Shown here: piece after piece, positions 48 through 62,926 of the stretch
Position numbering within the stretch: the stretch's first letter is position 1
How the letters are laid out: every line of letters starts with the position of its first letter
Sequence record: NC_111505.1
DNA: 64,000 nt
Reading direction: 5' to 3' (one strand)
Source: a phage
Translations under genes and position numbers: made by a program
Notes under the pieces: generated by a model
Told to the model about the DNA's origin: nothing
What the model saw: the letters and a program-made list of their open reading frames with translations, nothing else
Databases searched by the model: none

Positions 48-1538
48 TTAAATAGTTTGTTGGAAAGTTATATTACTTTCATCGAGGTCAAACACCTCGG
101 TCATGTTTGCAACAATATCGTTTGTGGTGTAAGCTTCGTCAGAGGCTCCCACAGGTTTAACTTGAATTACCAATCTGTTAAATCTGCCTATCGACACAGC
201 AGCTGATGCAGCACCTACCAATTGGATATTGTACAACGTATCGGCGACATCCAAGCCGTTAACAACCTGCAAAAGAGCCTCTGTAATGGCATCTTTTTCG
301 GTAGTAGAAAGAGCAGCACCTGAGTAGGTAATTATCATATCCAGGCGGTAAGTGTTTGCCTTAGAATAATAAATCCTTTCAGTCTGACCGTCTGATGTGG
401 TAATATCGTAGAAGATATTCCCATAAGTTCTGTTTGTGCAAGCTATGGTTTGATACAGCGCCTGACAGATATCCTCTGTTGCACCACCAAACACCACCAC
501 TTGAAACTTATAAGGTGGTATACCTTTCGCATCCGTTTTATCGGTGTTGTTAGAGAACACTCTTACTTTCTCAACACCTTTCACTTCGCTTACAGCGCTA
601 AGGATTGCAGGGCGGGTAGCTTTAGATGTCAACTGTTTAGTGCTGGAAGCTCTTAGGCGATACTCTGAGTCCTTCTCAACATCCCTACCCTCATTGAATC
701 TTTCTCGGTTGGTAAGCTTGATAAATCCGCTGGGAGTAGGCGACATTGTTGTTACAGTTTCTGCCTCTCTTGACAGCTCACCTGCCTCGTTAGCGATAAC
801 ATCTAGGGTGATAGTTCTTTCACCTACAATCGGGGATACTCTGAAATCTACTCTGCTATTAAGCCCAACTTGATCAAGATTCGAATTGTATCCTATCCAC
901 AACGTTCCTGTCAACATATCTATCTGAATTAAATCGTCGTTCAACAGGGTTGTGTTATCTACAATAAATTGCTTAATCTCGCCGTAAAAGCTTGGTAAAT
1001 CAGAAGAGTCCAGAGACTTATCGGTTAAAACCAGACTTTTTGTTTTGATACTTCCATCTGTCTGGTTGGTAATTTGAAAGTTGTATTTACCGATTCTTAG
1101 ATCTGGAGCGTTTATCCTGTGAGCAATAAGATTCCCCGCCACCTGCACGTCACTGCTAAGAACAAAGTTGCCACTATCCAGCGTGTAGGTTTTGGAATCA
1201 TAAATCATATTGTACGGCACAGTTGTGTTAATTGTCAACTGGCAAGTGCCTGATGATTTAGAACGACCTCTCCGGTAAATACCTTGCCTTCCAAGAAGTT
1301 CATCAAGGTAAATACCTTCTGCCCCATACAGCGTCTGGGATGCGTATACAGATGCTGCCATAAGAATAAGTTGATACTCTCGCTCGTTGAAGATAGTGGT
1401 CAGCTTATCTGCAACGGAGTTACTTTGTACGTTGAAGTTTTCGCCAAAAGCACGGATCAGGCTTTGCTTAGTTTCAACGATTAGGTCATTTAGGGTTGGT
1501 ATAACGAAACCAGCCTCGGTCAATCCATACTTAGCCAC
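48..1538 (-). CDS. baseplate J-like (gp47/gpJ-family) protein
   Basis: 496-aa ORF; N-terminus (GFVIPTLNDLIVETKQSL...) resembles the N-terminal pattern of baseplate J-family wedge proteins; sits in the tail module. Family assignment from recollection, not searched. Confidence 0.5.
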   Translation of the reverse strand: MAKYGLTEAGFVIPTLNDLIVETKQSLIRAFGENFNVQSNSVADKLTTIFNEREYQLILMAASVYASQTLYGAEGIYLDELLGRQGIYRRGRSKSSGTCQLTINTTVPYNMIYDSKTYTLDSGNFVLSSDVQVAGNLIAHRINAPDLRIGKYNFQITNQTDGSIKTKSLVLTDKSLDSSDLPSFYGEIKQFIVDNTTLLNDDLIQIDMLTGTLWIGYNSNLDQVGLNSRVDFRVSPIVGERTITLDVIANEAGELSREAETVTTMSPTPSGFIKLTNRERFNEGRDVEKDSEYRLRASSTKQLTSKATRPAILSAVSEVKGVEKVRVFSNNTDKTDAKGIPPYKFQVVVFGGATEDICQALYQTIACTNRTYGNIFYDITTSDGQTERIYYSKANTYRLDMIITYSGAALSTTEKDAITEALLQVVNGLDVADTLYNIQLVGAASAAVSIGRFNRLVIQVKPVGASDEAYTTNDIVANMTEVFDLDESNITFQQTI

Positions 1539-1605
1539 GTCACTCCTCCGGTATGAAAATCTCTACAAGGTATTTTACCAAATTTTGTAACAATAGTCAA
1601 TCTGA

Positions 1606-1634
1606 GCATAAAAATAAACCCCGCCGAAGCGGGG
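1606..1634 (-). terminator. rho-independent terminator after large tail fibre gene
   Basis: Hairpin CCCCGC-CGAA-GCGGGG (1619..1634) followed on the minus strand by a U-run (plus-strand A-run 1609..1618), immediately 3' of the 1644..5483 gene. Confidence 0.5.
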
Positions 1635-1643
1635 CTTTAAAGG

Positions 1644-4600
1644 TTAGTCGTGAGACTCGTTCCAAGGTCCCTGGAAGCTAGAGTTTGAACGACTTACTAC
1701 AACGGTAGGACAGGATATTGTGATGCCTGTCACGTTCCCTGTTGACCACGGCGTGTAAATTTCAACGATAATGTCTATGGTTTGTTCTCCAAGGCCTGTT
1801 ATCCCGATAGCGCACATACCGTCATTGTCGTTTCCGTACTTCTTGCCAGCAAGGAGCTGATGACCAGCTATCCACGCATTCAGTTGAGAGTTGGCACGCG
1901 TACCGTTCAGTTTAAAGAAGAATGTTACGTTCTTACCTTGGCCTTGTACGTTGTCCACATATCTCCATCTCCAACGGCAAACCCTTTGCTGGGAGTTATA
2001 TACTGGAGCACAATCCCCGTAAGTCCTGTGTGCAACAATTGCACCTTCGAACTGGTTAGCGCGGATAACAGAAGCTTCTACACGACCACGGAAGGTACCT
2101 CCGGTTGCATCTATGGTGCCTCTAAAGCTACCATTATTGGCATAAACATCCCCACGGAAGGTACCACTAGTGGCGTTAACTGCCCCTGTGAAGTTACCAG
2201 AACTGGCGTTGATGTTGCCTTTCACCCACACATCCATAAATTGGGCGTGCCCGTTCTTGTTAATATACCAACCGTATTTATGGTACCCGTTGCCATCGTA
2301 GTTGTTTGACGAAATTTCTTGTGCAATCTTGGCAGAAGAGATCGTCCCGTTCTCTATAAAAGCATCTTTCAAGAACGCTTGGTTGTTCTTGATTGCGAAA
2401 GCAAGGGTTGCTGTTCCATTTCCAGGGTTGTATACCGCAAAGTTGTTTGCACTAACCATGAAGTATGATTGTACTTGGCCTCCAGAACCTTCCATGCCCA
2501 ATTGGATACCTGCCACATACTTATTCCCTGCGGAGTCTACCTGTATTTTTGTGCCCCATTGAGCATTTACTTTGCCCTCTAAGTCGGTCACAGCCTTAGA
2601 TGTTGTAGCCACTGCAGCTCTTAGCTCTGATACATCCCCAACATCATCAATGATCTCCTGCTTAGCAACAGCAAGTTCTTGACGAATAGCTGACGCTGTG
2701 CCATTAATAAGATCCACGGTTGCTTTGTTGGTATCGGAGATTGTAGCATCTAGAGCTGTTTTTGTGGAGGTCAGTTTACCATCCAAATCCGCAATCGCCT
2801 GTTTGTTGGTAGAAATCTCCCCACGTGCAGAAGTTATCTGCTCCGACAGTGCGGAGGTTTTCTGATTCAACAAATCTGTGGTGGCCTTGTTGGTATTGGC
2901 AATCAGGGTATTGAGATCAGTTTTTGCGGTAGTTATCTTACCATCAAGGGTGGTATAGTTCTTAGATACTGTCGCGTTTGTCTGACTGATCTTTTGATCC
3001 AGAGTTTCAGAGGTCCTGTTGAGAAGATCCACTGTCGCCTGGTTGGTGCTTAAGATGCTTGCATCAAGTTCCGTTCTCTGGGTATTGATCTTGCCATCTA
3101 GAGTTTTATCTCCAGCAAGGTATCCGCTCTCCACACCACTTATTTGTTCTACCAACTCCCCTTTGGCTGCAACCAATTTCTCGTCCAAAGCCTCTGTCTT
3201 TTTGTTCAGAAGATCAGTGGTTGCTTTATTGGTTGTCTCAATCAGGGATGCCAATCTTCCACTTTCAGTGTTCAAATCGTTGGTGAACTTGTTCTGTGCA
3301 GCAACAAGTTTCCTATCCAGCGCTGTGATATTGCCATTGACATCCTCAAACTTCTGAGTTGTCTCTGTAACTACCGCACCTATTCTGTCTCCAAGTTGCT
3401 GGAATGCCTCATCTACCCTACCATCCATGTACCTGTTAAGTTCTGTGACACGATTTTCAACCTCTTCAATAGAGGAATCCAAAGTGCTCATCAACTCTTT
3501 ATAAGTTTCTGTCTTTTTGAATTCAGCATCTATCTGAGGCATCAAATCCTCAATAGAGGTGTAGCAGCGTGCAGCGCATTCTACAAACTGAGAACTGCCA
3601 AAAGCGTTTGTGGTCCGAATATACCAATAATAAACCTTATCGTTCTGCAGACCTTCAGATGTCCAAGTTGAACCAACACCCATACGGGTGGCGTTTGAAG
3701 TAACGGTTGCATCACTGGTGTCGGGCAACCTTGTCATACCGGATGTCCAAAAGTCATACTGGGTGCTTACACTTGCCAAATCCCTGCTGTGTGGAATCAA
3801 GGTGATAGCAAAGTATCCCTGCTTAACCTCTACAGAAACCGGAGCCTCAGGTGCCTGAATGTTAAACTCGCAGTACGCTTCTGGAGATACACCACCTTTA
3901 TAAGATGTTGCAACCACGGTTGCTGTGTATGACCCTTTGGTCAAACCTTCTACTCTGACAAACTGCTCAACTGTCTGTGCTGTCCAAACAATCTCTCCGT
4001 TCTTTCTTACCTGCACAATATTTTGAGCGTAAGTCCCAACGTTGTCCCAAGCTAAAACACCGTGAGTTACTTCTCCAGCTTGGAGAACGGAATATCTGAA
4101 GTTTTGCGGTTGAGCTACACCAGATGGGGATATCGGAATATCTACATCGCCAGAATCCGGAAGTTGCCCTGTGGCATCATTCCACTCTTTAGCATCTTGA
4201 CGAAGTTTTACCTTGACACCGCCCTTTTTGGTGAACTCCCATTCAAGAACCCTCATTTCTTGGCCCACTATACCAATACTTGGGAGGTCCATTGTAACAT
4301 AACGGCCAGGCTTAAATTTAAAACCTCGCATATTGCAGGTGACTTCAATAATCCTGCCAGCTCTAGCACGTCTTAAGAAGATTGCAGAAACACGTTGAGC
4401 TTGATAAGGACTGGTAACAAAGCGATAGTCTATATCGATTATCTTTCTTTCTCCATCCTTCTCTATCCACTCTGGTACAAACACTGATGGGAAATCTGTT
4501 TCAGAATACCCTTTGGTCGGACTAGTGAATCTGCCAGTTATTGTGTTAGATCTTTTGTCAAATGAGGCTTCCGGATAGATCTTAACCTCACCACAGACAC

Positions 4601-5483
4601 AGTCCTCCCTCAATGTCATTGTTGCCGGACCATAGTATGCACCAACCAGCAAACCATACTTACCAGCAACATAACTAAGGTCTGCACCGCAAGCTTTCAG
4701 CATTTCTGCCATAATACTTGCTGGGGCCTCATCCATGTCAAACTCACCGTTAATGGTGTAACGTCGCTCACTGGTGCCGTCAGCGTTTTTTACCGCCTCG
4801 TCGCATATGTTGGCAGCCTCCCTGAAGGACTCCCAGTTGATGGTTTCGTCAGGACATTTAAGGTATGTTCTTAAATAGTCCAGAATCACCAAGGCAGCGT
4901 TATTGGTATACACCTCTTTACTGGTGCGAGGATCATAGCATTTTTTACCAACCTTAACGAGTGTTACGTTTGGCAACCCAAAAGGAAACTTGTTAGGGTC
5001 AAACCTAAAGCTGACCCGTAGCCAACTGATCCCTCTGCCTATCATGTCCGGTGACCACGATGGGCAGTGTGTTCCCATAAAAGGATCAGAGGTTTTTCTG
5101 TCGTTATGTAGCTCCCACGATACCAAATCCCCATACGAAGAAATAGGATTACCGTCGATAAGTATATCTTCTATACCTTCTAGAGGGTGATTGGCAAGAA
5201 CAATGGCACAATGGAGGGTTCTGTCTCTATCCTGCTCCAAAAATGCAAGCAATCCAGATGTACGTGTCTTCCCATATACTACAGAACAAGGTGCAGCAGA
5301 AGATCTAAGAAGCTTTTGCCTATCTTGCTGACTTCTGTAAGATTTGTTACCCTCGAAAATCTTATCCAGAGTTCTGGTGGTAACAGTGTTCAGGCTGTCA
5401 GCCAGAGCTGCCTTGGATGCGTTCCAGTCATAGCTTGAAGATCTTGCAGAAGCAACGATGTTATCAATCATTGCAATTGGCAT
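1644..5483 (-). CDS. large tail fibre / host-specificity-type structural protein
   Basis: 1279-aa ORF. Central segment has degenerate ~40-aa repeats (TNKATTDLLNKKTEALDEKL.../DGKINTQRTELDASILSTNQATVDLLN...) typical of a coiled-coil shaft; C-terminus carries short Gly-rich repeats (GNFTGAVNATSGTFRGDVYANNGSFRGTIDATGGTFRG). Confidence 0.6.
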   Translation of the reverse strand: MPIAMIDNIVASARSSSYDWNASKAALADSLNTVTTRTLDKIFEGNKSYRSQQDRQKLLRSSAAPCSVVYGKTRTSGLLAFLEQDRDRTLHCAIVLANHPLEGIEDILIDGNPISSYGDLVSWELHNDRKTSDPFMGTHCPSWSPDMIGRGISWLRVSFRFDPNKFPFGLPNVTLVKVGKKCYDPRTSKEVYTNNAALVILDYLRTYLKCPDETINWESFREAANICDEAVKNADGTSERRYTINGEFDMDEAPASIMAEMLKACGADLSYVAGKYGLLVGAYYGPATMTLREDCVCGEVKIYPEASFDKRSNTITGRFTSPTKGYSETDFPSVFVPEWIEKDGERKIIDIDYRFVTSPYQAQRVSAIFLRRARAGRIIEVTCNMRGFKFKPGRYVTMDLPSIGIVGQEMRVLEWEFTKKGGVKVKLRQDAKEWNDATGQLPDSGDVDIPISPSGVAQPQNFRYSVLQAGEVTHGVLAWDNVGTYAQNIVQVRKNGEIVWTAQTVEQFVRVEGLTKGSYTATVVATSYKGGVSPEAYCEFNIQAPEAPVSVEVKQGYFAITLIPHSRDLASVSTQYDFWTSGMTRLPDTSDATVTSNATRMGVGSTWTSEGLQNDKVYYWYIRTTNAFGSSQFVECAARCYTSIEDLMPQIDAEFKKTETYKELMSTLDSSIEEVENRVTELNRYMDGRVDEAFQQLGDRIGAVVTETTQKFEDVNGNITALDRKLVAAQNKFTNDLNTESGRLASLIETTNKATTDLLNKKTEALDEKLVAAKGELVEQISGVESGYLAGDKTLDGKINTQRTELDASILSTNQATVDLLNRTSETLDQKISQTNATVSKNYTTLDGKITTAKTDLNTLIANTNKATTDLLNQKTSALSEQITSARGEISTNKQAIADLDGKLTSTKTALDATISDTNKATVDLINGTASAIRQELAVAKQEIIDDVGDVSELRAAVATTSKAVTDLEGKVNAQWGTKIQVDSAGNKYVAGIQLGMEGSGGQVQSYFMVSANNFAVYNPGNGTATLAFAIKNNQAFLKDAFIENGTISSAKIAQEISSNNYDGNGYHKYGWYINKNGHAQFMDVWVKGNINASSGNFTGAVNATSGTFRGDVYANNGSFRGTIDATGGTFRGRVEASVIRANQFEGAIVAHRTYGDCAPVYNSQQRVCRWRWRYVDNVQGQGKNVTFFFKLNGTRANSQLNAWIAGHQLLAGKKYGNDNDGMCAIGITGLGEQTIDIIVEIYTPWSTGNVTGITISCPTVVVSRSNSSFQGPWNESHD

Positions 5484-55671: not shown

Positions 55672-57983
55672 TCACCAAGGTAATTAAAAGCAACGGATGT
55701 GAAGTGGCATTCGATCCAGAACGTTTAAATAAGGCGGCTATTTTCGGTGACGACGGTAACGGCAATTGGTCACATATTGCACTGGATGCATACAAGCGGC
55801 TGTATGATGGATGTACAACCAAAGAAGTTAACCAAGCTATTATAGACTCTTGTGTTAGCCGTAAAGACGAAGCACATTCCCGTATGGCTGGTCGTGTTCT
55901 TATTGGTCAGATTTATAAAGAGGCTTTTGGAGGGTTTACAAAGATCCCTTCCTTACCATCATTTTACAATACCATGGTTGAGAAAGGGTATTGGGAGGAT
56001 ATGGGTTATAGCTTTACCGAGCTAAACACTTTAGACGCTGTTATTGACCACAGTAAAGATCTCGGTTATGGCTATGCAGTCCTTAAACAGTTTCGAGACA
56101 AATACGGGATCAAGGATACTCTTAAAGACACCCTGTTCGAATCTCCACAGATGATGTTTATGGGGATAGCGATGGCTGTCATGAAAAATATGCCGAAAGA
56201 ACGCCGTATTGACGATGTTGTAAAATTATACACTTATCTGTCAGACTTAAAGATCAATGCCCCGACACCGTACTTAAACGGTCTACGCACAGGTAAGACA
56301 GGGTATGCATCTTGTTGTGTAATAAAAGCTGACGATACAGCAAAATCTATTGGTGTGGCACGTGAAGTTGCATACACAATGACGGTTAACCAAGCAGGTA
56401 TTGGATACTATTTATCATCAAGATCTGCAGGTGATGGTGTTCGTGGTAACACTATTAAACATATGGGCAAGATTCCATATTATAGAGGTATTGATGCTGG
56501 GGTTAAGGAGAACAGACAACAATCACGTGGCGGTTCTGCAACAGTATCATTCCTTGCACTGGACCCGCAGATTGATGAGCTAATCCGTTTGAGAAACCCT
56601 ATGACTGTTGCTTCAAAAAGAATCAACACCATGGACTACTCTATAGGTATTAATAGGTCGTTTATCAACCGTGTGGCTAAGAATTTAGATTGGATGCTTG
56701 TTTCTTATAAGCACGCACCTCAACTGCACGAGGGTATCTTCACCATGTCTATGGAGGAGTTTGATGCAGAGGTTGATCGTATTGCTAAAGATGACAACAT
56801 TCCTAAAACATGGATCCGTGCTAGAGACCTTGCTGTTGAACTGATCACGCAGCGTACCGAGGTTGGCAGGCTGTATGTGTACTGGACAGATGAGATGAAT
56901 AGACATACACCTTTTAAAGATGTAATCTATTCAAGTAATCTGTGTGCAGAGATAGCCCTTCCGACAAAAGGCTATTCAGATATGCGTAATATCTTCAAGT
57001 ACGATGCTGATGATGGTGAGGTTGCATTGTGCTTCCTGTCATCCCTTGTAGCGGGAAGGGTTACCCCAGAGGAGTATGAGGATGTTGCATACTACACTGT
57101 GCTTATGATTGACAATGTTATGGAAATCATGACATATCCGTATGAAAATATGGAGAGCACTGTTAAAAAACGCAGATCCATCGGGGTTGGCCTTACCAAT
57201 ATTGCACATTTTATTGCCAGCCACAAGGTTGCTTACGGGTCTCCTGAAAGTAAACAGCTTGTTCACGATCTTGCAGAGCTTCACAGCTACAGCTTGCATA
57301 AGGCAAGTTTACGATTGGCAAAAGAGCGTGGTGTCTGCGAGTGGATGCATAAAACAAAATACCCAGAGGGTTGGTTACCAATCGACACTTATAACAAAGA
57401 GGTCGATAGTGTGGTGAAAGATCCTTCTCTTAAGCAGGATTGGGAAGGGTTACGTAAAGAAATTATTGAAAACGGTGGACTACGTAATAGCGTTCTTGAA
57501 GCATATATGCCTAATGAAAGCTCCTCGTTGGCAACAAACACAACTAACGGGGTTTATCCTGTCCGTGAGCACATTATCTTTAAAAAGTCGCCACAAGGGC
57601 AGGTGCTGTTTATCGTTCCTGAATATGATGAACTGAAAGAGTATTATACCTCGGCTTGGGACGTTGATACTAACGACATGATTGATATGTATGCTGTGAT
57701 TCAAAAATTCACAGGACAGGCAATCAGTGCTGACCTATATATTGATTACACCAAGTTGAAAGATGGTAAAATTTCAATGAAGGAGCAGCTTGGGTATCTT
57801 ATCCGTGCTACTAAATTCGGGATGAAGACATGGTATTACTTAAACTCTCGGGTTGGTGCTGGTGACTCTTTGACAGAGGAGCTCCACGCGAAGAAACAGG
57901 CTGAAGATGAAACCAGAAAGAACTATCCTTTGATTGCAGATAGTTCAGTTGAAGATCCATATTGCGAAAGTTGTGCACTGTAA
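55668..57983 (+). CDS. nrdA: ribonucleotide reductase class Ia alpha subunit
   Basis: TTG start with RBS GGAGG; N-terminus ITKVIKSNGCEVAFDPERL matches phage NrdA ATP-cone starts; NLCAEIALP active-site block; C-terminal CESCAL. Confidence 0.9.
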   Translation: MITKVIKSNGCEVAFDPERLNKAAIFGDDGNGNWSHIALDAYKRLYDGCTTKEVNQAIIDSCVSRKDEAHSRMAGRVLIGQIYKEAFGGFTKIPSLPSFYNTMVEKGYWEDMGYSFTELNTLDAVIDHSKDLGYGYAVLKQFRDKYGIKDTLKDTLFESPQMMFMGIAMAVMKNMPKERRIDDVVKLYTYLSDLKINAPTPYLNGLRTGKTGYASCCVIKADDTAKSIGVAREVAYTMTVNQAGIGYYLSSRSAGDGVRGNTIKHMGKIPYYRGIDAGVKENRQQSRGGSATVSFLALDPQIDELIRLRNPMTVASKRINTMDYSIGINRSFINRVAKNLDWMLVSYKHAPQLHEGIFTMSMEEFDAEVDRIAKDDNIPKTWIRARDLAVELITQRTEVGRLYVYWTDEMNRHTPFKDVIYSSNLCAEIALPTKGYSDMRNIFKYDADDGEVALCFLSSLVAGRVTPEEYEDVAYYTVLMIDNVMEIMTYPYENMESTVKKRRSIGVGLTNIAHFIASHKVAYGSPESKQLVHDLAELHSYSLHKASLRLAKERGVCEWMHKTKYPEGWLPIDTYNKEVDSVVKDPSLKQDWEGLRKEIIENGGLRNSVLEAYMPNESSSLATNTTNGVYPVREHIIFKKSPQGQVLFIVPEYDELKEYYTSAWDVDTNDMIDMYAVIQKFTGQAISADLYIDYTKLKDGKISMKEQLGYLIRATKFGMKTWYYLNSRVGAGDSLTEELHAKKQAEDETRKNYPLIADSSVEDPYCESCAL

Positions 57984-57992
57984 TTTAAAAAA

Positions 57993-58012
57993 GGGGCTTC
58001 GGCCCCATTTTA
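57993..58012 (+). terminator. short hairpin with U-tract between nrdA and nrdB (possible attenuator)
   Basis: GGGGC-TTCG-GCCCC (57993..58006) followed by ATTTTA; only a 5-bp stem. Confidence 0.35.
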
Positions 58013-58023
58013 GAGGTAGAATA

Positions 58024-59112
58024 ATGGCTGTATTTAATACTGAGAACACTGCTCATAAAACTGGTGATTATCCGCTGTTTCTAGGACAGCAGATGGGGAT
58101 GTACGACTCTATTAACAAAAAGTATCCACAGCTGTTTGAACTATACAAAAAACAAAAAGAACAAGATTGGGCAGAGGACGAAGTAGATTTGTCACAGTCT
58201 ATTTCTGATTTCGTAACATGCTCAAAGTCAACTTACGATGTGATGGTGCAGACACTGATGTGGCAATGGGAGGCAGACAGTGTTGCAGCAAGATCTATCA
58301 TTTGTCTGTTTTCACCATTTATCACCAACAGTGAGCTTTTCACCTTGTTGATGAAGCAGTCTGAGATTGAGGTTCTTCATGCACTAACTTACTCAGAGAT
58401 TGTTAGACAATGCCTTCCTAATGCTCGCGAGATTATAGAAGAGATTCAGGAAAACCAGAACGTGCTGAGCAGATCTGGAGTTATTGTCAAATATATGCAA
58501 GAGCTTGAGGTTATTGGTGCAAAATACCGACTGGATCCTTCCAGTGTTGAAGAAGATGTTGTACGGAAATGTATCCTTAGAGCACTTTTTGCACTTTTAG
58601 CTCTAGAAAGTATTGAGTTTATTGCAAGTTTTGCATGTACGTTCGCAGTAGCTGAGCAAGGTATTTTTGTTCAAGTGGCACAACTTGTTCAAAAAATTAT
58701 GCTTGATGAAATGCTGCACTCGAAAGGTGATTTTGCTATCATCGATATCCTGCTTGATGATCCTGCATGGGAGCAAAGCTTTCTTGAGATTAAGGGTGAG
58801 TTAAAAGAAATTCTTGACGAAGTGCGGACCAAGGAGTACGGTTGGAGTGACTATATTTTCAGCGAAGGAAGAGCGATTATAGGTCTTAATTCACCGTTGC
58901 TTAAAGAATGGGTTGACTATAACTGCTCACCGATTTATGATTATTACGACATCGACAAAGACTTTGTGCCGCCAACAAAGGACCCGCTACCGTTTATGCA
59001 GGTGTGGATGAAACCTTCATTGCAACAGACGGCGAACCAAGAAATGTCGAACACTGACTACCGCGTCAACACAACTGTTAACGACGCTGAAGAAGAAATT
59101 TGGGAGTTTTAA
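58024..59112 (+). CDS. nrdB: ribonucleotide reductase class Ia beta subunit
   Basis: Start at ATG 58024 (RBS GAGGT); 362-aa ferritin-like R2 protein directly after nrdA. Confidence 0.85.
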   Translation: MAVFNTENTAHKTGDYPLFLGQQMGMYDSINKKYPQLFELYKKQKEQDWAEDEVDLSQSISDFVTCSKSTYDVMVQTLMWQWEADSVAARSIICLFSPFITNSELFTLLMKQSEIEVLHALTYSEIVRQCLPNAREIIEEIQENQNVLSRSGVIVKYMQELEVIGAKYRLDPSSVEEDVVRKCILRALFALLALESIEFIASFACTFAVAEQGIFVQVAQLVQKIMLDEMLHSKGDFAIIDILLDDPAWEQSFLEIKGELKEILDEVRTKEYGWSDYIFSEGRAIIGLNSPLLKEWVDYNCSPIYDYYDIDKDFVPPTKDPLPFMQVWMKPSLQQTANQEMSNTDYRVNTTVNDAEEEIWEF

Positions 59113-59115
59113 TAT

Positions 59116-59394
59116 ATGAGCTGCGAAAAATCTTTTTTCATCATCATTTACGGTAAGGATAACTGCCCACATTGTGTAAGAGCAAAAGAATTTGCAGTCA
59201 GTAAAGGCATACCTTTCGTATACAAGACGCTAGGTGAAGGATACACAAAAGAAGAGCTTATCGAGAAGTGTAGCCCATTTGTTCCCAGAACGTTGCCTCA
59301 GATCTTCTTGGAAAGCAACCTTGACAGTATTCACATAGGTGGTGCTGACGATTTCATCTCTTTTGTTAAGAATGGTTTTGGAGAGAAAAAGTGA
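59116..59394 (+). CDS. glutaredoxin-like protein
   Basis: 92-aa ORF with CPHC redox motif (YGKDNCPHCVRAKEF), between nrdB and nrdD. Confidence 0.6.
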   Translation: MSCEKSFFIIIYGKDNCPHCVRAKEFAVSKGIPFVYKTLGEGYTKEELIEKCSPFVPRTLPQIFLESNLDSIHIGGADDFISFVKNGFGEKK

Positions 59395-60551
59395 AAGTTG
59401 TAAAACGGGACGGTAGAGAAGAGTTTTATAACGGAATTAAGGTGATCAAGGCGGCAGAGTCCGCCTTACTTGAGTCTGGACATACTGAAGAAGAAGCTTA
59501 CCGGATTGCCTGTGCGGTTAATGAAGTTGTTGCCAACAATCTGCCAACTGACCAGTGCACGATCTCTGTAAAAAATATCCATATCCTTGTTGAAGATGCT
59601 CTTATGGATATGGGTTTAAAATGTGCAGCCAGAGAATACATCCAGTATAGACAGACAAGAGATAATAACAGAGAGGCAGGTGGAAAACTGCTTGCCGATA
59701 TTAGTGGCTTCTTGGATCGTACTTGTGATGAATTTACAAAAGAAAACGCAAATAAGCCTACTAATCATGTACACACTCATCGTGACCTGCTTGCAGGAAT
59801 CCTTAGCAAACATCTTGCATCAACACAGATCCTGCCAGACCGTGTCTCTGAAGAGCACAACAAAGGCTTCATCCATGTGCATGATCTTGACTACCTGATC
59901 AGTCCGTTAACAAACTGTTGTTTGGTAAATTATCCGGATATGCTGGAAAACGGATTCAACATTGGCAACGCCCATGTCAGTAAGCCGAAGTCAATAGGGG
60001 TTGCAACAACAATCCTTAGCCAAATCTCTAGTGCAGTAGCTAGTGCTCAATATGGCGGTCAGACCATGAGTCATATTGATCATTATTTGGCACAGTATGC
60101 TGAAGCAACTTATGAGAAGAACCTTAAATTTTGTCAGGAACATTGGTTGCCAGATGCTGAGACTGTTGCAATGCAAATGACAGATAAAGACGTGTTTGAT
60201 AGTATGCAAACTTTGCTCTACCAAATCAATACGTTAACTTCTGTCAACGGGCAAACCCCATTCATCACATTAAGTTTAGGGCTGGATACTTCGGTCTTTG
60301 GTAGAATGATTACCAAAAACTACTTGAAAGTTCACAAAATGGGTCTTGGTGAAGAACGGATCACACCTGTGTTCCCTAAAGTGCTGTTCTTCTTAGAGGA
60401 GGGTGTCAACATGAACCCTGGGGATCCTAACTACGATTTGAAACGGTTGGCCCTAGAATGCTCTGCAGAGCGGATTTATCCTGACTTTGTTTCTGTTCCT
60501 CTAAATCGTAAAGTGACAGGTTCAACAGACGGCAAAGTAACAAGCATGGGT
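59391..60551 (+). CDS. nrdD: anaerobic ribonucleotide reductase, exon 1
   Basis: GTG start overlapping the glutaredoxin stop (RBS GGAGAG). Exon ends after ...TSMG at U60551, which pairs with internal guide GCTCATG (60563..60569) to form a 7-bp P1. Confidence 0.8.
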
Positions 60552-61313
60552 AAACTATAACTGCTCATGTAAAATCTATCTAAACGGGGAAACTCCAGAA
60601 CGGACAATCCCGTGCTAAACGTAACAGAACTCCTGACTAAGAGGAGTCCTGAAATGAGAAAACAAATTCGTGATTTTGAAGGTTATGAAATTGACGAGAT
60701 GGGCAATGTTTATTGCACCCGATACGAAAATGAAAGAATTATTCATTCGTGGGAAGAGATAAACACAGGTTACCGTCTTGTCAGGATACGCAAGAACAAA
60801 AAGACTGTTTGCCTAAGGGTTCACAGACTTGTTGCTGAAGCGTTTTTACCAAATCCAGACAATTTACCATATGTTAAGCACAAAGGTGACAACAGGAAAG
60901 ATAACAGCGTATACAACCTTGAGTGGGGAGCTTGCCCAGACAATACTCAAGAAGGATACGACAACAACTGTTATGCTTTTTACACAAGATGTCACGGGGT
61001 GAAAGCCACCCACAAATTAACTGGTGTGGTTATTCACTTTAAGAGTCTGAGATGTTGTGCTGATGTTTTAGGAATAGATAGAAAAAGAATATCTGCTATC
61101 CTGAAACGTGGTGCACCTAATAACTATGATTACGAGTTCTGTTACGAAATGCCTAACGACTAACCGTGATGAATGTAGCGGTGTAGGGTGTAAGCTGATG
61201 ACACTCGAAATGGTAGACACACTAAGTGTGAAGATATAGTCTGATCTGCATGGGGACATGCAGCAGCACGTAAAGGTGCGGGGGTGGCCTTGCGAACCAC
61301 CTTGAACATAATG
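60552..61313 (+). mobile_element. group I intron in nrdD carrying an HNH homing endonuclease ORF
   Basis: 762 nt. 5' region AATCTATCTAAACGGGG...GACAATCCCGTGCTAAA and 3' end ...CATGCAGCAGCACG...GAACATAATG resemble T4 td-type group I introns as recalled; ends in G61313. Exons join in frame (SMG|CRSFL). Confidence 0.7.
60654..61163 (+). CDS. intron-encoded HNH homing endonuclease
   Basis: Start at ATG 60654 with RBS GAGGAG; HNH_3-type motif VHRLVAEAFLPNP...KHKGDNRKDNSVYNLEW. Confidence 0.65.
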   Translation: MRKQIRDFEGYEIDEMGNVYCTRYENERIIHSWEEINTGYRLVRIRKNKKTVCLRVHRLVAEAFLPNPDNLPYVKHKGDNRKDNSVYNLEWGACPDNTQEGYDNNCYAFYTRCHGVKATHKLTGVVIHFKSLRCCADVLGIDRKRISAILKRGAPNNYDYEFCYEMPND

Positions 61314-62276
61314 TGTAGAAGTTTCTTATCGAAATATAGCGACCCTGTAACAGGCGAGGAGAAATACCTTGGCAGATTCAACTTGGGTGTTGTTAGCCTT
61401 AACCTACCAATGATTGCGGCAAAAGCTAAGACGGAAGGTATTGATTTCTTTGCAGTTCTTGACGAATACCTGGATCTTGCATACGAGGCTCACCTTGTAA
61501 GGGTTAACCGTCTAAAAGGAACAAAGGCAGGGCAGAACCCTATCATGTGGTGTGAAGGAGCTCTTGCTCGCCTGGATCCTGAAGAGAGTATCGATAAACT
61601 CTCCTATGACGGGTACGCTTCCATCAGTATTGGGTATATTGGTGTGTATGAAACCTGTCAGATTTTGGGCAGAGAGGGTGACAAGGCTTTAGCTCTTGGA
61701 ATCCTTCAGCACATGAAAGATGCTTGTGAGCGATACAAGAAGGAAAGTGGACTAGCATTTAGCTTGTACGGCACACCTTCTGAGAGTTTATGCTATAAAG
61801 CTGCAACCTGTCTGGATCGTGAATACCCAGAAGTGTTGAAGCACGAGCATGAATACCTCACCAACAGTTTCCATCAGCCAGTATGGATCAATAGCTCGCC
61901 TTTTGATAAGTGGAAGTATGAGGAAGGTTTTGCTATGATCTCCTCTGGTGGCAACATTGGATACATAGAAACACCTAATCTGAAAAACAACCTGGATGCT
62001 TTGGAATCTCTTGTCGATTTCGGGTATAAACACATTATGTATTTTGGTATTAACCAACCTGTGGATAAATGTCTTAAATGTGGATTCTCTGGTGAGTTCA
62101 GTGCAACAGCTAAAGGCTTTGTATGCCCAGAGTGCGGAAACCATGAAGAGGGAACGATCAGTGTGATTAGACGTGTATCCGGGTATCTGTCCAGTCCAAA
62201 CTCCCGCCCTTACAATAAGGGTAAGCAAGCGGAGGTTATAGAACGGGTTAAGCACTACGGAAGTTGTGGTTGCTGA
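61314..62276 (+). CDS. nrdD: anaerobic ribonucleotide reductase, exon 2
   Basis: Begins CRSFLSKYSD... in frame with exon 1; C-terminal zinc site CLKCGFSG...CPECG and glycyl-radical motif RVSGYLS. Confidence 0.8.
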   Translation, partial: CRSFLSKYSDPVTGEEKYLGRFNLGVVSLNLPMIAAKAKTEGIDFFAVLDEYLDLAYEAHLVRVNRLKGTKAGQNPIMWCEGALARLDPEESIDKLSYDGYASISIGYIGVYETCQILGREGDKALALGILQHMKDACERYKKESGLAFSLYGTPSESLCYKAATCLDREYPEVLKHEHEYLTNSFHQPVWINSSPFDKWKYEEGFAMISSGGNIGYIETPNLKNNLDALESLVDFGYKHIMYFGINQPVDKCLKCGFSGEFSATAKGFVCPECGNHEEGTISVIRRVSGYLSSPNSRPYNKGKQAEVIERVKHYGSCGC

Positions 62277-62339: not shown

Positions 62340-62456
62340 ATGTCTACAGGTATTTATAAAATTTGCAAGTGTGGTTGTCATTGCAATCTTCGTTGGTGTA
62401 AGGCACTGGACGATTTTATTTGGCATTGTCCTAAATGCGATGCGGAGTATGTATGA
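62340..62456 (+). CDS. small Cys-rich zinc-ribbon-like protein
   Basis: 38-aa ORF (MSTGIYKICKCGCHCNLRWCKALDDFIWHCPKCDAEYV) with strong RBS AGGAGGT; its stop overlaps the nrdG ATG. Too short for the supplied ORF track. Confidence 0.3.
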   Translation: MSTGIYKICKCGCHCNLRWCKALDDFIWHCPKCDAEYV

Positions 62457-62926
62457 ATATTGTCGGGTATACAGAGATATCTTACACCGAGGGACCGGGT
62501 ATTAGGACAGCTTTGTGGGTATCTGGGTGCCCACACGCTTGCCCTGGTTGCTTTAATCAAGCATTTTGGTCAAAAGATAAAGGAAGAGAGTTCACCGAAG
62601 AAGATTTGCAGAAAGTTTTGTCGGACTTAGACAATGAATCTGTATGCGGTATTTCTTTACTTGGTGGAGAGCCTTTGGCTACTTATAATGAGCCAGGTAT
62701 TATTGACCTTATGAGGAGAATTAAGGAAAAGTTTGGTGACAAGAAAACTATTCTTGTGTATACTGGGTTCACATTTGAGCATATCTCTAGTGATGTTCTT
62801 AAACTGGCTGATATCGTCATTGATGGAAAGTATGTAAAAGATTTACCAACCAAGAAACCATTTCGAGGCAGTGATAACCAAAGAATGTTTAAAAAGGTAG
62901 CAGGAGGTTGGGTTCAGGTTGACTAA
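62453..62926 (+). CDS. nrdG: anaerobic ribonucleotide reductase activating protein (radical SAM)
   Basis: Start at ATG 62453; GPGIRTALWVSGCPHACPGCFN matches the NrdG cysteine-cluster region. Confidence 0.75.
   Translation: MNIVGYTEISYTEGPGIRTALWVSGCPHACPGCFNQAFWSKDKGREFTEEDLQKVLSDLDNESVCGISLLGGEPLATYNEPGIIDLMRRIKEKFGDKKTILVYTGFTFEHISSDVLKLADIVIDGKYVKDLPTKKPFRGSDNQRMFKKVAGGWVQVD

Follow-up and report, generated by a model that had tools for sequence, protein, structure and literature searches.

The stretch of DNA analyzed here (the window, 64,000 nt in length) comes from a Vequintavirus, an rV5/FV3-like phage of E. coli, and carries on its plus strand an interrupted nrdD gene for anaerobic ribonucleotide reductase (positions 59391 to 62276). 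Exon 1 (59391 to 60551, plus strand) has a GTG start and encodes the ATP-cone and the N-terminal half of NrdD, residues 1-387, which end in ...TSMG. Exon 2 (61314 to 62276, plus strand) encodes residues 388-707, with the codon for the finger-loop Cys first, and includes the glycyl-radical domain and the zinc ribbon. In the list of open reading frames (ORFs) the upstream frame extends from 59391 to a TAA stop at 60558-60560, and T60551 is the third base of codon Gly387; the first codons of exon 2, TGT AGA AGT TTC TTA (CRSFL), directly follow G61313. Exon 1 is collinear with the intron-less nrdD of ECP2303 and rV5. It matches the Pfam ATP-cone and positions 1-263 of the NRDD profile, ending at residue 387, while exon 2 matches NRDD positions 264-562 and Gly_radical, so that the profile is interrupted at 263|264, between residue 387 of the first ORF and the first residue encoded from 61314 onward. 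Intron-less relatives read ...AGCATGGG(T/A)|TG(T/C)... at the proposed junction, in exact agreement with it. Judged from these alignments, the intron-less relatives and the Pfam NRDD profile fix both boundaries of the insert to the base, and the insertion lies between codons Gly387 and Cys388, just ahead of the catalytic finger-loop Cys codon. The predicted ligated-exon sequence is ...AGCATGGGT|TGTAGAAG..., and an rV5-type intron-less nrdD has TGCCGGAGTTTTCTTAGC... at this site. The joined frame is open over 707 aa, and the spliced protein aligns with T4 NrdD (1H78) as one continuous stretch (E = 1e-166), with Cys388 opposite T4 Cys290. The original prediction had placed the NrdD stop at 60560, the resumption of the frame at 61314 after a 762-nt insert ending in G61313, and an in-frame junction ...TSMG|CRSFL...; all of this is borne out by the sequence, the ORF list, the intron-less alleles and the profile, and the alignment of the joined protein to NrdD homologues, which it had proposed as a check, gave the expected result.

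We assigned the insert (60552 to 61313, plus strand, 762 nt) to the group I introns, subgroup IA2, T4 nrdD (sunY) type, on the basis of intron-less alleles, structure, covariation and Rfam RF00028. The final 7 nt of exon 1, CAUGGGU (60545 to 60551), form the 5′ strand of P1, and the internal guide sequence GCUCAUG (60563 to 60569), the same as in the T4 nrdD intron, forms its 3′ strand. All 7 of the 7 pairs are standard, and the terminal one, at the 5′ splice site, is a U·G wobble; the pairing of U60551 with the guide had been proposed from the sequence. Minimum-free-energy folding returns the same hairpin (-9.5 kcal/mol, z = -3.6). Across the family P1 is 97% paired, with the U·G present in 9 of 10 sequences. 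The in-frame TAA that stops exon-1 translation (60558 to 60560) lies two codons into the intron, within the P1 loop, where by analogy with T4 introns it may keep ribosomes off the core. A candidate P10 strand read from the sequence, CUAUA (60555 to 60559), may pair with the five nucleotides that open exon 2, UGUAG (61314-61318), to which it is complementary; a 3-nt gap separates this candidate pairing from the guide.

The 5′ half of the core (60575 to 60632, plus strand) comprises the P3 5′ strand (60575-80), P4 (60584-89/60608-13), P5 (60594-96/60602-04), the P6 5′ strand (60614-15) and the P6a 5′ strand (60620-32). The 3′ half (61134 to 61302, plus strand), which the Rfam alignment covers, comprises the 3′ strands of P6a (61134-46) and P6 (61151-52), the P7 5′ strand (61158-62), P7.1 (61163-66/61179-82), P7.2 (61186-91/61201-06), the P3 3′ strand (61212-17), P8 (61218-22/61226-30), J8/7 and the P7 3′ strand (GAAGAUAUAGUC, 61230-41), P9 (61246-52/61257-63, loop GGGA), P9.1 (61266-69/61276-79) and P9.2 (61282-87/61297-302). 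The motif GAAGATATAGTC has a single exact match within the window. The intron ends with the terminal G (omega-G) at 61313 on the plus strand, a 3′ splice site set by the intron-less alleles. A GTG at 61284, inside P9.2, starts an ORF that continues into exon 2.

Comparison of 10 family members supports this fold. In the P1-P9.2 structure 94.9% of the pair cells are paired, as against 32-42% when partners are slid, a control in which the structure is favored by having been drawn by hand on the window sequence. Double (compensatory) changes occur in 38 of the 74 pairs, compared with 6-14 after sliding, and none of 500 shuffles reached 38. The covariation set was formed without the metagenomic copies L011, L012, L017, L020-L022, L024 and both copies of L023, whose 5′ cores were not found with simple anchors. 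P3 and P4 are both 100% paired, and double changes affect 4/6 pairs in P3, 2/6 in P4 and 4/5 in P8; P7 is invariant, and both P7 and J8/7 agree with the Rfam consensus. The two helices between P7 and P3′, P7.1 and P7.2, are likewise 100% paired, with double changes in 4/4 and 5/6 pairs, respectively. In these alignments the predicted core, including the P3/P7 pseudoknot, is maintained by covariation, and the extra helices P7.1 and P7.2 place the intron in subgroup IA2, the type of the T4 td, nrdD and nrdB introns.

An Rfam scan of the whole window at the gathering threshold returned no group I match. The RF00028 score of the window copy is 32.9 bits (cut-off 50), and the match, which comprises only the 3′ core, has an E-value of 1.9e-6 on a 921-nt stretch and 1.3e-4 on the whole window. 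The score falls below the cut-off because P6a and the core are split by a loop of 501 nt that contains the ORF; since the missing match is explained in this way, we did not count it against an intron. Homologues at this site that lack the ORF reach higher scores: 70.6 bits in phi92, 70.4 in ECGD1 and L019, 70.5 in L010, 70.1 in L016, 75 in L025, 69.6 in L013 and 56.8 in L015. The L010 core is identical to that of the window at 67/68 and 160/167 positions (227/235). With the window copy itself below the cut-off, the covariance-model check suggested in the original prediction succeeded only indirectly, through ORF-less homologues at 56.8-75 bits. Covariation, together with homology to copies above the curated Rfam threshold, supports the predicted group I ribozyme fold.

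The Vequintavirus records that we examined split nrdD into two or three separate NrdD proteins, alongside a hypothetical or HNH protein, and an intron feature is present in none of these records. Separate coding sequences are what one would expect of a gene in pieces, in which the insert has lost splicing and NrdD consists of two polypeptides that assemble into active enzyme; the aerobic ribonucleotide reductase of Aeromonas phage Aeh1 is reportedly split in this manner by a free-standing endonuclease gene. The GTG at 61284 might likewise be taken as the start of a second polypeptide, but it is part of P9.2. Moreover, compensatory changes preserve the ribozyme core in nearly every helix, ORF-less homologues exceed the curated covariance-model threshold, and the break would be within the finger loop, immediately 5′ of the radical Cys (PMC4493059). 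We therefore consider it highly improbable that the gene is expressed in pieces.

The P6a loop contains the HNH ORF that had been predicted within the insert, a gene for a putative I-HmuI-like HNH homing endonuclease (60654 to 61163, plus strand, 510 nt, 169 aa). Its final 30 nt also form the P6a 3′ strand, J6/7 and the P7 5′ strand, and its stop codon lies in P7/P7.1. The ORF matches PHROG 59 (E = 4.5e-32) and, with residues 3-166 against residues 4-172 of 174, the structure of I-HmuI (PDB 1U3E, E = 6e-8). Its Pfam matches are both below threshold, HNH_3 at 20.0 bits (cut-off 24.8) and a NUMOD-like match of the I-HmuI kind, and no intein-type domain was among them. Phage ribonucleotide reductase genes have been reported to contain inteins (PMC3653736), and the insert might be read as an intein or another protein-level intervening sequence; however, the exon-1 frame closes two codons into the insert and the HNH ORF lies in a different frame with its own Shine-Dalgarno sequence, so the reading frames refute this explanation.

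The protein resembles I-HmuI over its full length, from the HNH motif to the NUMOD-like DNA-binding region C-terminal to it, and both enzymes are intron-encoded in lytic phage, although the host gene and the intron differ. The His of VKHKGDN, the Asn of KDN and the Asn of PDN align with the I-HmuI motif DHKDGN...NN...IN. The residue preceding the catalytic His is Lys in the window ORF and Asp in I-HmuI, where this Asp is a metal ligand; catalytic competence is therefore not assured. Values of dN/dS for the ORF are 0.04 and 0.095, and by this codon-level measure it is under strong purifying selection.

A local hairpin (60620 to 60656, plus strand; -12.4 kcal/mol, z = -3.3) pairs the P6a 5′ strand with the Shine-Dalgarno sequence AGGAG (60642-46) and the start codon (60654-56). 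An equivalent Shine-Dalgarno hairpin is found in VEcB, with a compensatory change from U-A to C-G, and the hairpin may have a regulatory role. The pairing at the Shine-Dalgarno sequence is ACUCCU/AGGAGU. We rejected an internal promoter for the ORF: a scan for sigma-70-type promoters, a class that excludes the phage's own promoter types, gave only a weak 9-of-12 match within the intron on the plus strand, and its total was no greater than in shuffled sequences.

We then considered how the intron is distributed. The nrdD site is uninterrupted in 100 of the 118 Vequintavirus records that hold it. Among phages with 90-98% identity in the flanking exons, intron identity is 97.1-100%, and the window, JEP1, EPFV3 and WM have identical introns within exon sequence that differs by 2-10%. 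All six intron-plus Vequintavirus alleles compared share the same 41 nt of exon 2 (61314 to 61354, plus strand), with 100% identity from +1 to +41 in every intron-plus pair, whereas intron-minus alleles encode the same peptide across this tract with different, synonymous codons. Together, the sporadic distribution, the conservation of the element beyond that of its host gene and the co-conversion of exon sequence constitute the genetic signature of homing, and these comparisons among alleles support homing as the source of the pattern. The identical introns and the sharply bounded tract point to recent transfer, and the tract probably contains the endonuclease target.

Alternatively, the intron may splice while its HNH protein has lost homing nuclease activity (acting, for example, as a maturase or DNA-binding protein), in which case the distribution would reflect past mobility or ordinary recombination. 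The Lys in place of the I-HmuI Asp is in keeping with this, as is a relative, L017, that has Met at the same position and also lacks the middle Asn; the ORF-deleted derivatives in phi92 and ECGD1 indicate that the ORF is dispensable for persistence. Set against these observations are the low dN/dS (0.04-0.10) across the entire ORF, the retention of the catalytic His and both motif Asn residues, and the recent transfer indicated by the intron and tract that the window, JEP1, EPFV3 and WM share despite their divergent exons. We regard an inactive nuclease as unlikely.

Taken as a whole, the element is very likely a mobile, self-splicing IA2 group I intron in nrdD that carries an I-HmuI-like HNH gene and homes into intron-less alleles. 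In the pre-mRNA, P1 would form between the 3′-terminal 7 nt of exon 1 and the guide GCUCAUG, placing the U·G wobble at the splice site. Exogenous guanosine bound at P7 would attack after U60551, the released exon 1 would attack after the terminal G61313, and ligation of ...TSMG to CRSFL... would yield full-length 707-aa NrdD. The ribosome-binding site and AUG of the ORF would be masked by the hairpin with one strand of P6a, and HNH translation is probably restrained or tied to the folding of the ribozyme. In a mixed infection, the endonuclease would probably nick or cut intron-less nrdD near the insertion site, recognizing mainly exon-2 sequence; HNH intron enzymes of the I-HmuI kind are nickases that act on one strand (PMC2988022). 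Repair by recombination with the intron-plus genome would then copy the intron along with about 40 nt of exon 2.

A full-text literature search found no description of an nrdD intron in Vequintavirus. The rV5 paper reports introns in the terminase gene only, and the LL12 paper reports them in the terminase and DNA polymerase genes. With respect to annotation, nrdD should be represented as a single joined CDS, together with an intron and a gene for a homing endonuclease. The element is real and well preserved but conceptually ordinary: group I introns and homing endonucleases are already known from phage ribonucleotide reductase genes, and it brings no new concept to them. It does add a candidate I-HmuI-like nickase whose target, of about 40 bp, can be predicted, and a co-conversion tract that is sharply defined and asymmetric. 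This one nrdD site also offers a natural series through the life cycle of a homing element (empty site, ORF-less intron, ORF-bearing intron and ORF-deleted relics), of which imprecise loss is possibly another stage.

Among the closest known systems, the T4 nrdD (sunY) intron with I-TevII lies in the same host gene and shares the IA2 architecture with P7.1/P7.2, P9.1/P9.2 and a GNRA L9, as well as the identical guide; its core is 68% identical to that of the window and 73% identical to that of the ORF-less L010. The resemblance to td-type introns noted originally holds in that the T4-type sequence blocks are real, and is refined here to the T4 nrdD (sunY) IA2 lineage by a comparison made without the td intron. 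The two introns do not share a site: that of T4 is equivalent to window codon 276, 111 codons upstream of the window site after codon 387. The T4 intron encodes a GIY-YIG enzyme in its 3′ P9 region, while the window intron encodes an HNH enzyme in P6a, and these endonucleases are unrelated and must have been separate acquisitions. The T4 site UAUGAGU| and the window site CAUGGGU| are each fully complementary to the one 7-nt guide, GCUCAUG. One might imagine that a sunY-type ribozyme lineage moved between the two nrdD sites by reverse splicing, without its endonuclease, and in addition that a P6a-strand switch couples translation to folding; we consider this proposal unlikely. In such a switch the P6a 5′ strand would pair either with the Shine-Dalgarno sequence and AUG of the ORF or with the ORF 3′ end, the two pairings being mutually exclusive, and could thereby couple endonuclease translation to ribozyme folding.

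The ORF-less nrdD introns of phi92 and ECGD1 (Justusliebigvirus) occupy the same site as the window intron, MG|CRSFL, and have a core about 90% identical to it; unlike the window copy, they exceed the Rfam gathering score. Their ORF has been deleted, with ECGD1 retaining only its last codons (...YDYEFCYEMPND*) and phi92 less. The phages that carry them are from another subfamily, and exon 1 of their nrdD is shorter by about 98 codons (289 vs. 387). The GenBank record of phi92 already annotates a joined CDS, the 'spliced variant' gp192A, across the ORF-less homologue.

FV3, JEP1 and phita32 carry a second nrdD intron, at a position that we call site A, in the same gene and genus as the window intron. 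This insert is group I-like and has an HNH ORF, a P1 of CAACGGU/GCCGUUG with a U·G wobble, and a terminal G. It differs from the window intron in lying after codon 287, in having an unrelated sequence and in carrying its ORF before J8/7. The corresponding site in the window (60251|60252) is empty. Site A is distinct from the T4 site, 11 codons downstream of it.

The first NrdD open reading frame (59391..60560) ends at a TAA stop codon at 60558-60560 and matches Pfam NRDD profile positions 1 to 263, the match ending at residue 387 (...TSMG). In the translation of 61314..62276, the first residue (CRSFL...) corresponds to profile position 264 and the match extends to position 562. When 60551 is joined to 61314, the frame stays open for 707 codons and its product aligns to T4 NrdD (PDB 1H78) in one continuous stretch (E = 1e-166), and uninterrupted nrdD alleles (ECP2303, FV3 at this site, rV5, Murica and Gotham) are collinear at the same point, reading ...AGCATGGG(T/A)|TG(T/C)... 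across the proposed junction. Because the profile break, the open joined frame and the uninterrupted alleles meet at this junction, we place the insert at 60552..61313 (762 nt), preceded by U60551 and ending in G61313. The original prediction had given the same limits, with the NrdD frame halting at 60560, resuming at 61314 and being restored in frame at TSMG|CRSFL, and the alignment to NrdD homologues bears it out. An intein was excluded by the reading frames.

The insert had also been predicted to be a group I intron. The Rfam group I model gave no match at the gathering score when the whole window was searched; with the insert alone it scored 32.9 bits (E = 1.9e-6), covering the 3′ core only (61029..61263). 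This low score is attributable to the HNH ORF, which occupies the loop of P6a, a 13-bp helix with strands CGUAACAGAACUC (60620-32) and GAGUUCUGUUACG (61134-46), as seen when the insert was aligned with its homologues in three Justusliebigvirus phages: VEcB, 85% identical and with an ORF, and the ORF-less ECGD1 and phi92. ORF-less inserts at the same site in phi92 and ECGD1 exceeded the curated threshold of 50 bits (70.6 and 70.4 bits, respectively), and metagenomic copies scored 56.8-75 bits, so that for the window copy the covariance-model evidence comes by way of its ORF-less homologues. A 137-kb viral contig (L010), with a short T4-like P6 hairpin in place of the ORF, matches the window core at 67/68 and 160/167 positions outside P6a. 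The T4 nrdD intron, whose boundaries we located in NC_000866, has the same internal guide (GCUCAUG), P3-P4 sequence and overall plan, and its core is 68% identical to that of the window. On these comparisons we assign the insert to the group I ribozymes of T4 nrdD (sunY) type. Several metagenomic phage contigs, unrelated to one another, also have a member of the family at this MG|C position. The family spans more than one host gene, each site having a guide sequence adapted to it, and some viral contigs hold two such introns ~1.2-2.8 kb apart (L009, IMGVR_UViG_3300018411_000044, at about 3470-3800 and 4650-4900; and L023, two copies).

On the window sequence we drew P1, P3, P4, P5, P6, P6a, P7 (pseudoknot), P7.1, P7.2, P8, P9, P9.1 and P9.2, and counted pairs over an alignment of 10 family members. 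Standard pairs occupied 94.9% of cells, compared with 32-42% when partners were slid by 1-3 columns, a control biased in favor of a structure drawn from one of the aligned sequences; compensatory changes, however, cannot arise in this way, and both-sided changes were found in 38 of 74 pairs, compared with 6-14 when slid, a value reached by none of 500 shuffles. Covariation was seen in each of P3, P4, P7.1, P7.2, P8, P9 and P9.2, while P7 did not vary among the 10 members and is therefore uninformative in either direction. The presence of P7.1 and P7.2 places the intron in subgroup IA2. The predicted pairing of U60551 and the guide GCTCATG was recovered as P1, in which CAUGGGU pairs with GCUCAUG and the splice site carries the U·G; this helix is likewise the lowest-energy structure when 60540-60572 is folded (z = -3.6). 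CUAUA (60555-59) could possibly pair with UGUAG (61314-18) as P10. A non-splicing NrdD made as "genes in pieces" is very unlikely, as compensatory changes have preserved the ribozyme and the two pieces would be divided within the finger loop.

The HNH ORF expected within the insert was identified as a 169-aa frame (60654..61163) matching PHROG 59 (HNH endonuclease, E = 4.5e-32) and aligning end to end with I-HmuI (PDB 1U3E; residues 3-166 vs. 4-172 of 174, E = 6e-8); its Pfam HNH_3 and I-HmuI NUMOD-like matches fall under their cut-offs. The motif keeps the catalytic His and both Asn, but Lys replaces the Asp that precedes the catalytic His in I-HmuI, where this Asp is a metal ligand, and the predicted endonuclease activity therefore cannot be taken for granted. 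Strong purifying selection acts on the ORF (dN/dS 0.04 vs. VEcB, at dS of about 1.1, and 0.095 vs. phita32), and we regard an inactive or repurposed protein as improbable. The final 30 nt of the ORF also supply P6a with its 3′ strand, J6/7, and P7 with its 5′ strand, and the stop codon lies across P7/P7.1; ECGD1 retains the terminal codons (...YDYEFCYEMPND*) and has lost the remainder. The P6a 5′ strand pairs with the Shine-Dalgarno sequence (60642-46) and AUG (60654-56), forming a local hairpin (-12.4 kcal/mol, z = -3.3); VEcB shares this hairpin, a U-A pair there being replaced by C-G as a compensatory change. Ribosome-binding sites of T4 intron ORFs are masked, and by analogy the hairpin may play such a role here.

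The site is present in 118 Vequintavirus records and is uninterrupted in 100 of them. In pairwise comparisons of six intron-plus phages, identity was 97.1-100% in the intron, 90-98% in the adjoining 240 nt of exon 1, 100% in all pairs at exon 2 +1 to +41, and 91-97% at +42 to +240; the shared tract on the 5′ side was <10 nt. Intron-minus alleles encode CRSFLSKY with other codons (e.g., rV5 TGCCGGAGTTTTCTTAGCAAATAC vs. TGTAGAAGTTTCTTATCGAAATAT in the window), and the last exon-1 base of the ECP2303-type allele is A, not U. Such a pattern is characteristic of gene conversion that an endonuclease initiates, with asymmetric co-conversion, which has been described for introns of T4 (PMC2988022), and it suggests that the enzyme target lies mainly within exon 2. 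Escherichia phage V18 (KY683736) is intron-free at both Vequintavirus nrdD sites and has an exon-2 tract of the intron-plus type, but its unannotated nrdD frame is broken exactly at both (SVNG|NPFYH... and TSMG|YVEVS...; around locus position 1693, ATGGGATATGTAGAAG vs. ATGGGTTGTAGAAG in spliced alleles); either imprecise loss of the introns or an error in the assembly could account for this.

The window site, directly ahead of the finger-loop Cys codon, is equivalent to T4 NrdD Gly289|Cys290, the number 290 being taken from our alignment, whereas T4 carries its nrdD intron at a point corresponding to window codon 276. The second Vequintavirus intron, after codon 287 in FV3 (1361..2158 of its locus), JEP1 and phita32, is 798 nt long, group I-like (SVNG|QTPF) and unrelated to the window intron; its P1 is CAACGGU/GCCGUUG, and it carries a separate HNH ORF ending in J8/7. 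Introns thus occupy at least three different positions in phage nrdD. In the window, the intron at 60552..61313 is the only one in nrdD; the second site is empty (60251|60252) and reads AACGGG|CAAACC, compared with AACGGT|CAGACT in FV3, so this empty site again lacks the U and has a synonymously different downstream exon. A single guide sequence is matched by both the T4 and window sites, yet the endonucleases of the two introns are unrelated and sit in different loops. The ribozyme might therefore have transposed by reverse splicing and then been invaded by ORFs on separate occasions, but support for this is weak, since no family member is markedly closer to the T4 core than the others.

Group I introns with homing endonucleases are long established in phage RNR genes (PMC2988022, PMC3653736). 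The phi92 GenBank record has a joined "spliced variant" CDS across its ORF-less homologue and the JEP1 record labels the ORF "HNH homing endonuclease, Phage intron"; an intron feature or joined nrdD appears in none of four Vequintavirus records at this locus (ECP2303, FV3, JEP1 and EPFV3), and for rV5-like phages the papers searched describe introns in terminase and DNA polymerase only.

The region 59391..62276 resembles Vequintavirus genomes (rV5/FV3-like E. coli myophages), most closely Escherichia phage EPFV3-03/2025 (98.5% identity, 100% query coverage). The interrupted nrdD (59391..62276) follows genes for the RNR small subunit (57934..59112) and glutaredoxin (59116..59394), whose stop codon overlaps the nrdD GTG start (59391-59394; span 59388..59394), and precedes nrdG (62435..62926). 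Between nrdD and nrdG, a 38-codon Cys-rich ORF on the plus strand (62341..62457; MSTGIYKICKCGCHCNLRWCKALDDFIWHCPKCDAEYV) with two CxxC-like pairs is preceded by an AGGAGG ribosome-binding site and overlaps nrdG (62435..62457); EPFV3 has a 117-nt hypothetical CDS annotated at this position. These overlaps suggest translational coupling along the operon.

On the minus strand, the terminase large subunit gene is also split (30950..33476), in agreement with the presence of introns in the rV5 terminase gene (PMC3606486). It comprises an N-terminal ATPase ORF (32727..33476), a 231-aa HNH endonuclease ORF (31918..32613) and a C-terminal ORF (30950..31735), with two sub-threshold Rfam group I matches (31806-32014, 34.2 bits; 32382-32743, 25 bits). 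A tRNA cluster on the same strand (35017..35737) has at least five genes above the Rfam gathering score, and two further sub-threshold tRNA-like matches (35371-35457 and 35576-35658) were assigned to tRNA-Sec.
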